This document shows, in pieces, positions 33,188-34,228 of a DNA stretch of 64,000 nucleotides; positions within the stretch are counted from its first letter, which is position 1, and every line of letters begins with the position of its first letter. Made by a program: the position numbers and the translations under genes. Location: NCBI RefSeq assembly GCF_057098645.1, contig NZ_CM169472.1; one strand, given 5' to 3'. The notes beneath the pieces were generated by a model. It made no database searches. It was not told where the DNA came from and was given only the letters and a program-made list of their open reading frames with translations.

Positions 33188-34228
33188 TCAGGGAATGAGC
33201 AACACTTTGCCCGGCATAGCATTACGAGCGATGTCACGCACCGCCTGGGCGAAGCTTTCAAAGCTTCCACGGTGAGCGATTAATGGCTCCAGGCTTAACT
33301 TACGTTCTGTCAGCAACCGGCTCGCCGTTTCCCACTCCTGCCCCGGCCAAGGGCTGGAGTAGTTCATCCAACTGCCGATAACCGTCAGCTCTTTACGCTA
33401 TATTTTGCCAAACGTTGCCGATGTTAAATGCAGATCCTGATGCAACGTGCCCACCAGCGCCAGTTGGGCATGAGGACCGGCAATCTCTACCGCCAGTTCG
33501 ACAGTTTGCGGTACGCCAGCCGTCTCGAGGATAAGCTGATTAAAGCGCAGTTCGCGTAAAACGCTCTGCATTTGCGGCGCGCTCATTTCGCTACTGTTAA
33601 ATGTTTGCATCGCACCGAAAGATTTTGCCAGTGCCAGTTTTTCTGAACTAATGTCGATCGCCGTCACACTCTTTGCTCCCAGCGCGACAGCGCACTGAAT
33701 GGCCAGCAGGCCAATGGTTCCGGCACCAATAATAATAACGTTTTTATTCTCACAACCTTGCGCTAAATGAAAAGCATGCAGACCAACGGTAATCGGCTCA
33801 ATAAAAGCCCCATCCTCAATAGGCATATCCGTGGGTAGAGCAAAGACATTTTTTCGCTTAACGACAATATATTCAGCAAATCCACCATCACGCCGCGAGC
33901 CAATAAAATCATATTTTGCGCACTGGGAATAAAACCCTTTCAGACACTCTGGACAAGTAAAACAGGGTAATAACGGCACACAGGCAACCGCATCGCCAGG
34001 GTGTAAATCATCAACACCGGATCCCACCGCATCAATATAGCCGCTAAATTCATGGCCTAACGTTATTGGATAATAATGTGCACCATTTTTAAATATCCTG
34101 GGTAAATCGGAACCACATAAGCCCGAGCTGGCAATTTTTACCCGCACCTCATCCTGATGTTTAATTTCAGGAATGACGCTTTCTGCAACGCGCACGATAC
34201 CATCAGTATCATTCACCACTGATTTCAT
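33188..34228 (-). pseudogene. gatD: Galactitol-1-phosphate 5-dehydrogenase gatD interrupted by an in-frame TAG at codon 277 (plus-strand 33398-33400)
   Basis: Zn-dependent MDR dehydrogenase ORF stops after ...TSATFGKI; the same frame continues RKELTVIGSWMNYSSPWPGQEWETASRLL...MPGKVLLIP for 69 more codons to a natural stop at 33188-33190 (346 codons total). Confidence 0.75.

Follow-up and report, generated by a model that had tools for sequence, protein, structure and literature searches.

The window analysed here is a stretch of 64,000 nucleotides from contig NZ_CM169472.1 (RefSeq assembly GCF_057098645.1), and it carries a galactitol (gat) operon on the minus strand in the gene order gatY-gatZ(::IS2)-gatA-gatB-gatC-gatD-gatR. 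Family matches and collinearity with K-12 and with the O145:H28 strain RM13514 place gatD as the final gene of gatYZABCD, adjoining gatR. Intact gatY (39039..39893, minus strand) is identical to the K-12 gene, and the galactitol PTS genes gatA (35950-36402), gatB (35635-35919) and gatC (34276-35631), all intact and on the minus strand, are nucleotide-identical to those of K-12. The repressor gene of the operon, gatR (32309..33082, minus strand), belongs to the DeoR family by its DeoR/GlpR family matches; it is intact and the same as the RM13514 copy (WP_001295426.1), whereas K-12 has gatR::IS3 in its place. From gatY through gatZ, gatA, gatB and gatC to gatD, the window is nucleotide-identical to K-12 except for an IS2 element in gatZ and one base at codon 277 of gatD.

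gatD, the gene of galactitol-1-phosphate 5-dehydrogenase, occupies 33188..34228 on the minus strand with 346 codons and a stop, and its frame is broken at codon 277. Translation from 34228 to 33188 starts at ATG and runs through 276 sense codons to a TAG at 33400-33398, after which 69 further sense codons lead to TGA at 33190-33188. The sense codons on the 3' side of the TAG read RKELTVIGSWMNYSS...KVLLIP in the in-frame translation. In the list of open reading frames the gene is cut at the TAG: one frame covers 33398..34228 (276 aa), and what remains downstream (33188..33397, minus strand) holds residues 278-346 and the TGA and is presumed untranslated. The original prediction had described exactly this arrangement, an amber codon at gatD codon 277 followed in the same frame by 69 codons up to the canonical length of 346, and on translation its coordinates and content proved exact.

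Compared with gatD of K-12 MG1655, the window copy has 1 difference in 1,041 nt, an A in place of T at nt 830 (window position 33399), by which codon 277 (33398..33400, minus strand) reads TAG rather than TTG (Leu). The step from TTG to TAG is one transversion, and with the window copy one nucleotide apart from K-12, the expectation of a single-base nonsense change rather than a natural terminus was correct. All 69 codons downstream of the TAG are nucleotide-identical to functional gatD, so the pattern did not arise by chance. When Leu277 is put back, the protein matches the E. coli GatD of known structure (PDB 4A2C) with 100% identity across 346 aa.

Residues 1-276 alone score 579.5 bits against the NCBIfam GatD model NF007642, above its equivalog cutoff of 550, and the uninterrupted frame with complete ADH_N, ADH_zinc_N and C-terminal segment is missing from the window copy. 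The window gene has 345 of 346 in-frame residues in common with functional GatD (K-12 b2091, WP_000844219.1; PDB 4A2C) and takes the same last-gene position in gatYZABCD, but it has a stop where codon 277 should specify Leu, and its predicted product is 276 aa long and inactive. Judged by its sequence, the window gatD is a pseudogene and not a functional member of the GatD family, and annotation should call it so, not as a shorter dehydrogenase of 276 codons.

The other lesion of the operon is an IS2 of 1,331 bp (36546..37876, minus strand) that splits gatZ behind codon 378 of its 420, as defined by its length, its IS2 ends and the point where the BLAST alignment with RM13514 breaks. It is flanked by a 5-bp target-site duplication, GCATG, at 37877..37881 (minus strand) with the second copy at 36541-36545, and it separates a 5' portion of gatZ with 378 codons (37877..39010, minus strand) from a 3' remnant (36412-36540). 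The element has its transposase genes oriented like the gat operon and its left inverted repeat towards the gatZ 5' portion, and its first three bases (TAG) form the stop of the truncated GatZ at residue 378 of 420. NCBIfam models of IS2 match TnpA with 275.8 bits and TnpB with 727.6 bits, and these matches, the length of 1,331 bp and the GCATG duplication identify the element as IS2 (IS3 family). In a scan for promoters and terminators over the operon and the IS2 ends, promoter-like sites were fewer than in shuffled controls and none lay at the junction.

The genome searches covered 5,426 complete RefSeq E. coli genomes. No contiguous match to the gatZ::IS2 junction was found among them, and the gatZ IS2 is absent from RM13514 and the other O145:H28 genomes; the insertion is therefore later than the amber and private to the window strain. 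Two matches covering the whole junction query were rejected as a different event, gatA::IS2 in 2013C-4830 and 2012C-4227. These two unrelated STEC strains carry a frameshifted gatZ together with gatA::IS2, and their gatD and gatR are intact (positions 5022-8077 of the locus L003 for 2013C-4830). An IS2 in gatZ beside an intact repressor had been predicted and is confirmed by the element, its duplication and the gatR comparison. The related statement that the galactitol pathway has been hit twice holds in that both lesions are real; the two hits are however not contemporaneous, the amber being old and lineage-wide and the IS2 recent and strain-private.

A 61-mer centred on the gatD TAG has an exact match in 25 of the 5,426 complete genomes, and the entire window gatD is 100% identical to the copies in these same 25 genomes. 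In a further 4,758 genomes the 61-mer region is present at 95-99% identity, and each of the 35 near-matches listed, including K-12 and O157:H7, differs by one mismatch. A gatD match is absent in 323 of the 5,426 genomes, and seven genomes carry gatD::IS1. The 25 TAG genomes are all EHEC of O145:H28 or O145:NM type, including ST32 and ST6130. They come from cattle (faeces), patients, creek water, lettuce and ice cream on three continents, and they were sequenced by different groups (USDA, CDC; USA, Japan, Canada, Korea, Spain). The allele is thus confined to one clade that matches the phylogeny, in which the window is grouped by its flanking SNPs.

This distribution bears on two explanations that the original prediction had left standing. 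One is a sequencing or assembly error, with a true codon TTG and an intact gatD. Single-base differences are the commonest type of assembly error; however, the identical TAG recurs in 25 complete genomes sequenced independently by different groups, which rules a sequencing error out, and since the window is phylogenetically adjacent to these genomes, an error would need to coincide with precisely the allele of its relatives. We regard this explanation as scarcely conceivable. The other is a laboratory-adapted lineage that acquired its lesions in passage, as K-12 derivatives did. IS1, IS5 or ISVsa5 in the gat operon is frequent among K-12 laboratory derivatives, and the IS2 in gatZ could be recent, because its junction occurs in no other complete genome. 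Against this, the carriers of the TAG are wild isolates from cattle faeces, patients, lettuce, ice cream and creek water, by which a laboratory origin of the amber is ruled out; the window has an intact gatR where K-12 does not; and the window is not K-12, as many flanking sites differ and group it with O145:H28. A laboratory lineage is accordingly highly improbable. What stands from the proposed readings is pathway decay in a host-associated lineage, with a TAG common to the O145:H28 clone and further lesions in the operon.

In RM13514 (ECRM13514_RS14070) and RM13516 (ECRM13516_RS13750), gatD has the same 1,041 nt including the TAG, in the same operon context and with gatR intact; the window differs from O145:H28 strains of this type by gatZ::IS2, by 10 private SNPs and by the lack of a gatZ L109M substitution. 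In the public annotation, each of the 10 O145 records inspected has gatD marked by PGAP as "pseudo, internal stop", so that the gatD pseudogene of O145:H28 is already known in annotation. From the genome comparison, the gatD amber is a real and inherited pseudogene across O145:H28 EHEC.

The bovine strain 5735 is the nearest relative with TTG. It is 99.9% identical to the window over 24 kb of flank, its gat operon is intact, and it encodes the K-12 GatD protein, WP_000844219.1. The proposed comparison with gatD from other strains yielded TTG (Leu) as the ancestral codon, as found at codon 277 in strain 5735, in K-12 and in the listed O157:H7 genomes (there as the single mismatch to the 61-mer). 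The TTG and intact operon of strain 5735 mark the TAG as the derived state, reached from a sense codon of the relatives by a one-base path.

The window and the O145:H28 genomes have 7 derived sites in common over the 31 kb compared. The nearest complete RefSeq E. coli genome differs from the window by at least 11 SNPs per 23.9 kb, and with none closer the window represents an unsampled sister branch of O145:H28. Relative to the O145:H28 genomes and strain 5735, 10 SNPs are private to the window (31516, 31602, 40009, 44211, 49744, 55079, 55145, 55518, 58449 and 60063). As a side observation, 9 of these 10 are in the GC-to-AT direction.

A substitution in gatZ gives the order of events. At gatZ nt 325 (window position 38686), C>A (L109M) is present in all 10 sampled O145:H28 genomes, and the window keeps the ancestral K-12-type base. 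The window thus has the TAG together with the ancestral gatZ base, which puts the gatD amber before gatZ L109M, unless the latter reverted in the window. The most parsimonious order, as read from these genomes, would be the TAG, then divergence of the window branch, then gatZ L109M on the O145:H28 stem, then gatB L26F, which is present in most ST32, and at last the strain-specific events. The TAG is found in RM13516 (ST6130) as well as in the ST32 strains, and ST32 split from the ST137 lineage, which includes ST6130, at about 1786 (Nakamura et al., PMC7067040). Since the TAG reaches into the deep-branching ST6130 and the window is sister to the sampled O145:H28, the amber predates this split of roughly 230 years ago. 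It very probably arose once, in the common ancestor of O145:H28 EHEC and the window's sister branch, and was passed down vertically over a few centuries or more.

The 69 codons downstream of the TAG are perfectly intact, and this could be taken as a sign that the amber is read through, either by a suppressor such as supE or by a natural or programmed mechanism, so that functional GatD is made and the downstream frame is under selection. UAG is also the leakiest and the rarest stop codon of E. coli, which would favour such a reading. However, from the 3' part of gatZ to the 5' part of gatR, about 3.7 kb around the TAG, the window has no other difference from K-12, and the 25 TAG genomes have zero substitutions within gatD. 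The absence of any further change in about 3.7 kb means that the intact 69 codons reflect recency and are uninformative on selection. Recoding with selection on the downstream frame was rejected, as there is zero divergence from which constraint could be deduced. Programmed recoding would be conserved across taxa, whereas this stop is limited to a single young clone and the allele is missing from at least 4,758 other genomes. Disruptions and nonsynonymous changes are moreover accumulating in the rest of the operon.

Suppression was considered separately, because the original prediction had proposed a check for an amber suppressor allele such as supE. The suppressor inspection covered one locus, the glnV/glnX cluster of RM13514, among several where an amber suppressor could arise (tyrT, serU, leuX and others). 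In this O145:H28 genome, the cluster metT-leuW-glnU-glnW-metU-glnV-glnX has Gln anticodons TTG, TTG, CTG and CTG, all wild type. Thus glnV and glnX carry the wild-type CTG, and the one O145:H28 genome inspected has no supE allele. A supE-type glnV 75-mer with the anticodon CTA occurs exactly in 155 records, and the 60 matches listed are all K-12 laboratory derivatives. No tRNA genes were found in the window. Suppression of the gatD amber is unlikely, and the whole reading in which functional GatD is still made appears very improbable, although gatD may undergo natural UAG readthrough at a low level.

We return to the gatD amber as a loss of function. The TAG lies inside the Pfam ADH_zinc_N domain (residues 172-305), and 70 residues (20%) of the protein are removed. 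The remnant takes in the end of ADH_zinc_N and a C-terminal stretch over which other medium-chain dehydrogenases can be aligned as far as about residue 344. Among homologues of solved structure, threonine, sorbitol and xylitol dehydrogenases match GatD to about residues 331-346, across the missing segment, which is therefore part of the conserved fold. An AlphaFold2 prediction for the full-length protein, run on the single sequence, had a mean pLDDT of 37 and was set aside; the Pfam limits and PDB alignments were used in its place. Translation would stop at codon 277 and give a fragment of 276 residues without the last 70. This fragment would lack the final part of the NAD-binding Rossmann domain as well as the C-terminal portion of the medium-chain dehydrogenase fold, and we infer that it is inactive. 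Because it lacks the final 70 residues, the second step of galactitol (dulcitol) catabolism, from galactitol-1-P to tagatose-6-P, would be blocked.

In experimental work, gatD has been described as essential for galactitol use (PMC3072379, citing Lengeler 1977 for this point). In Citrobacter rodentium, a prophage interrupts gatD while the remaining operon is intact, and there is no growth on galactitol (PMC3072379). The TAG strains are accordingly expected to be Gat-negative; no dulcitol or galactitol phenotype of O145:H28 was found in the searchable literature, which makes this a prediction. If it holds, the dulcitol-negative phenotype that the amber predicts could aid differential plating or typing.

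Most of the TAG-bearing operons are damaged no further, since the gat operon is otherwise unbroken in at least 15 of the 25 TAG genomes. Independent second disruptions in gatZ or gatC were seen in 3 of 26 TAG-bearing operons with the window included. Apart from gatZ::IS2, these are a 5-bp deletion in gatZ of RM9154-C1 (nt 435-439) and, in strain 95-3192, the loss of 1 bp from a G5 run of gatC (nt 1171). In RM12275-C1 and RM8995-C1, a 1-bp deletion lies in a C5 run of the gatC-gatD spacer near the gatD ribosome-binding site. The homopolymer 1-bp deletions in 95-3192, RM12275-C1 and RM8995-C1 may be assembly errors. Coding substitutions in the TAG-bearing operons are nonsynonymous in 3 of 3 cases, namely gatZ L109M, gatB L26F and gatY A238S, the last one in RM9872. 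These data fit relaxed constraint on the rest of the gat operon, with very small counts (3 substitutions, 3 disruptions). In such a process, once gatD was dead the remaining operon would have come under relaxed or inactivating selection, and strains would since have gained independent second hits, in the window the IS2 in gatZ just upstream of gatABC. Taken together, gatD is very probably a true pseudogene by T>A, with an amber of single origin and vertical inheritance, in a relaxed operon that received later hits.

The same anatomy could have a different selective cause, that of adaptive loss with compensation: the loss of gatD, or of galactitol use in general, would have been selected in the gut, and later upstream hits would have shut off uptake by GatABC. 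A gatD-null strain with intact GatABC and an inducible operon should accumulate galactitol-1-phosphate, and the later hits in gatZ or gatC would for this reason detoxify; such relief of galactitol-1-P toxicity is plausible. In mouse-gut populations, gat-negative K-12 mutants sweep every time with a selective advantage of about 7% (0.07), and for the Gat-positive ancestor galactitol is inhibitory (PMC3945185). Inactivation of the gat locus occurs at a rate of about 1e-5 per generation (PMC5094792). Natural losses also point in this direction, for example those in CC119 STEC, which are dulcitol-negative with gat lesions (PMC10132054), in 2013C-4830, in the seven gatD::IS1 genomes and in the gatD::prophage of C. 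rodentium, as does the position of the second disruptions in 3 of 26 TAG operons, upstream of or within the transporter genes.

Other evidence speaks against adaptive loss. At least 15 of the 25 TAG genomes kept all other gat genes unbroken for more than 200 years, the polarity of the IS2 on gatABC is only putative, the promoter and terminator scan being uninformative on it, and the lesions are too few to be tested statistically. In the mouse experiments the strain was K-12, in which an IS3 in gatR makes gat expression constitutive. In the window gatR is intact, so gat expression should be repressed without galactitol. In addition, according to figures of the Manual of Clinical Microbiology as quoted in PMC10132054, about 60% of E. 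coli are positive for dulcitol fermentation and about 40% negative, which fits neutral loss. We hold adaptive loss with compensation to be possible but rather unlikely. The stronger proposal, in which the amber was favoured by selection as the metabolic change that founded the clone in the O145:H28 ancestor and the later gatZ and gatC hits were compensatory and detoxifying, is improbable to a slightly greater degree; if true, it would be a natural two-step trajectory that mirrors experimental gut evolution.

Loss of the gat operon is commonplace in E. coli, and the gatD amber is ordinary pathway decay, a further natural example of a well-documented loss. The closest parallel is C. rodentium ICC168 with gatD::prophage CRP49 (PMC3072379), likewise a LEE-positive attaching-effacing pathogen in which gatD alone was knocked out, and where growth on galactitol was demonstrably lost. 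That lesion, however, is a prophage insertion and not a point nonsense change, and it is in a different genus. In CC119 STEC (O165:H25, O172:H25; PMC10132054) and in the K-12 gut sweeps (PMC3945185, PMC5094792), the same operon is recurrently inactivated by IS elements and small indels, with a dulcitol-negative phenotype on record. The targets in those cases are others (gatZ, gatA, gatC and the gatY promoter), and the gatD L277 amber is reported in none of them. The amber can serve as a single-base marker of common descent in the O145:H28 EHEC clone and the branch sister to it.

Several other features were recorded in the window and its relatives. Next to the gat operon, the interval from gatY to fbaB contains a naRNA4 (REP-derived) element (40100-40170, minus strand). 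On the other side of the operon, the CyaR sRNA (30357-30442) adjoins a variable site in the yegR-yegQ interval. This site is empty in the window, holds phage integrase or P2-like prophage genes in RM13516 and C325, and has an ogrK/P2 remnant in K-12. A JUMPstart element is located near the start of the window (1062-1100, minus strand), and a TPP riboswitch (48025-48121, minus strand) lies upstream of thiM-thiD. At 16191-16997, there are three tandem copies of the Sib antitoxin RNA (Rfam RF00113, 141-145 bits each), where the corresponding K-12 locus has two copies, SibA and SibB. In strain 5735, an ISVsa5 (IS10-like) element is inserted between yehB and yehC, and yehB is shortened (positions 15471-16679 of the locus L015). 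Downstream of metG, a gene with a DUF4132 domain (59163 to beyond 62000) is called "pseudo, internal stop" in all 4 genomes compared, namely three O145:H28 genomes and the non-EHEC strain 5735, and it is apparently a second and older nonsense pseudogene in the window.
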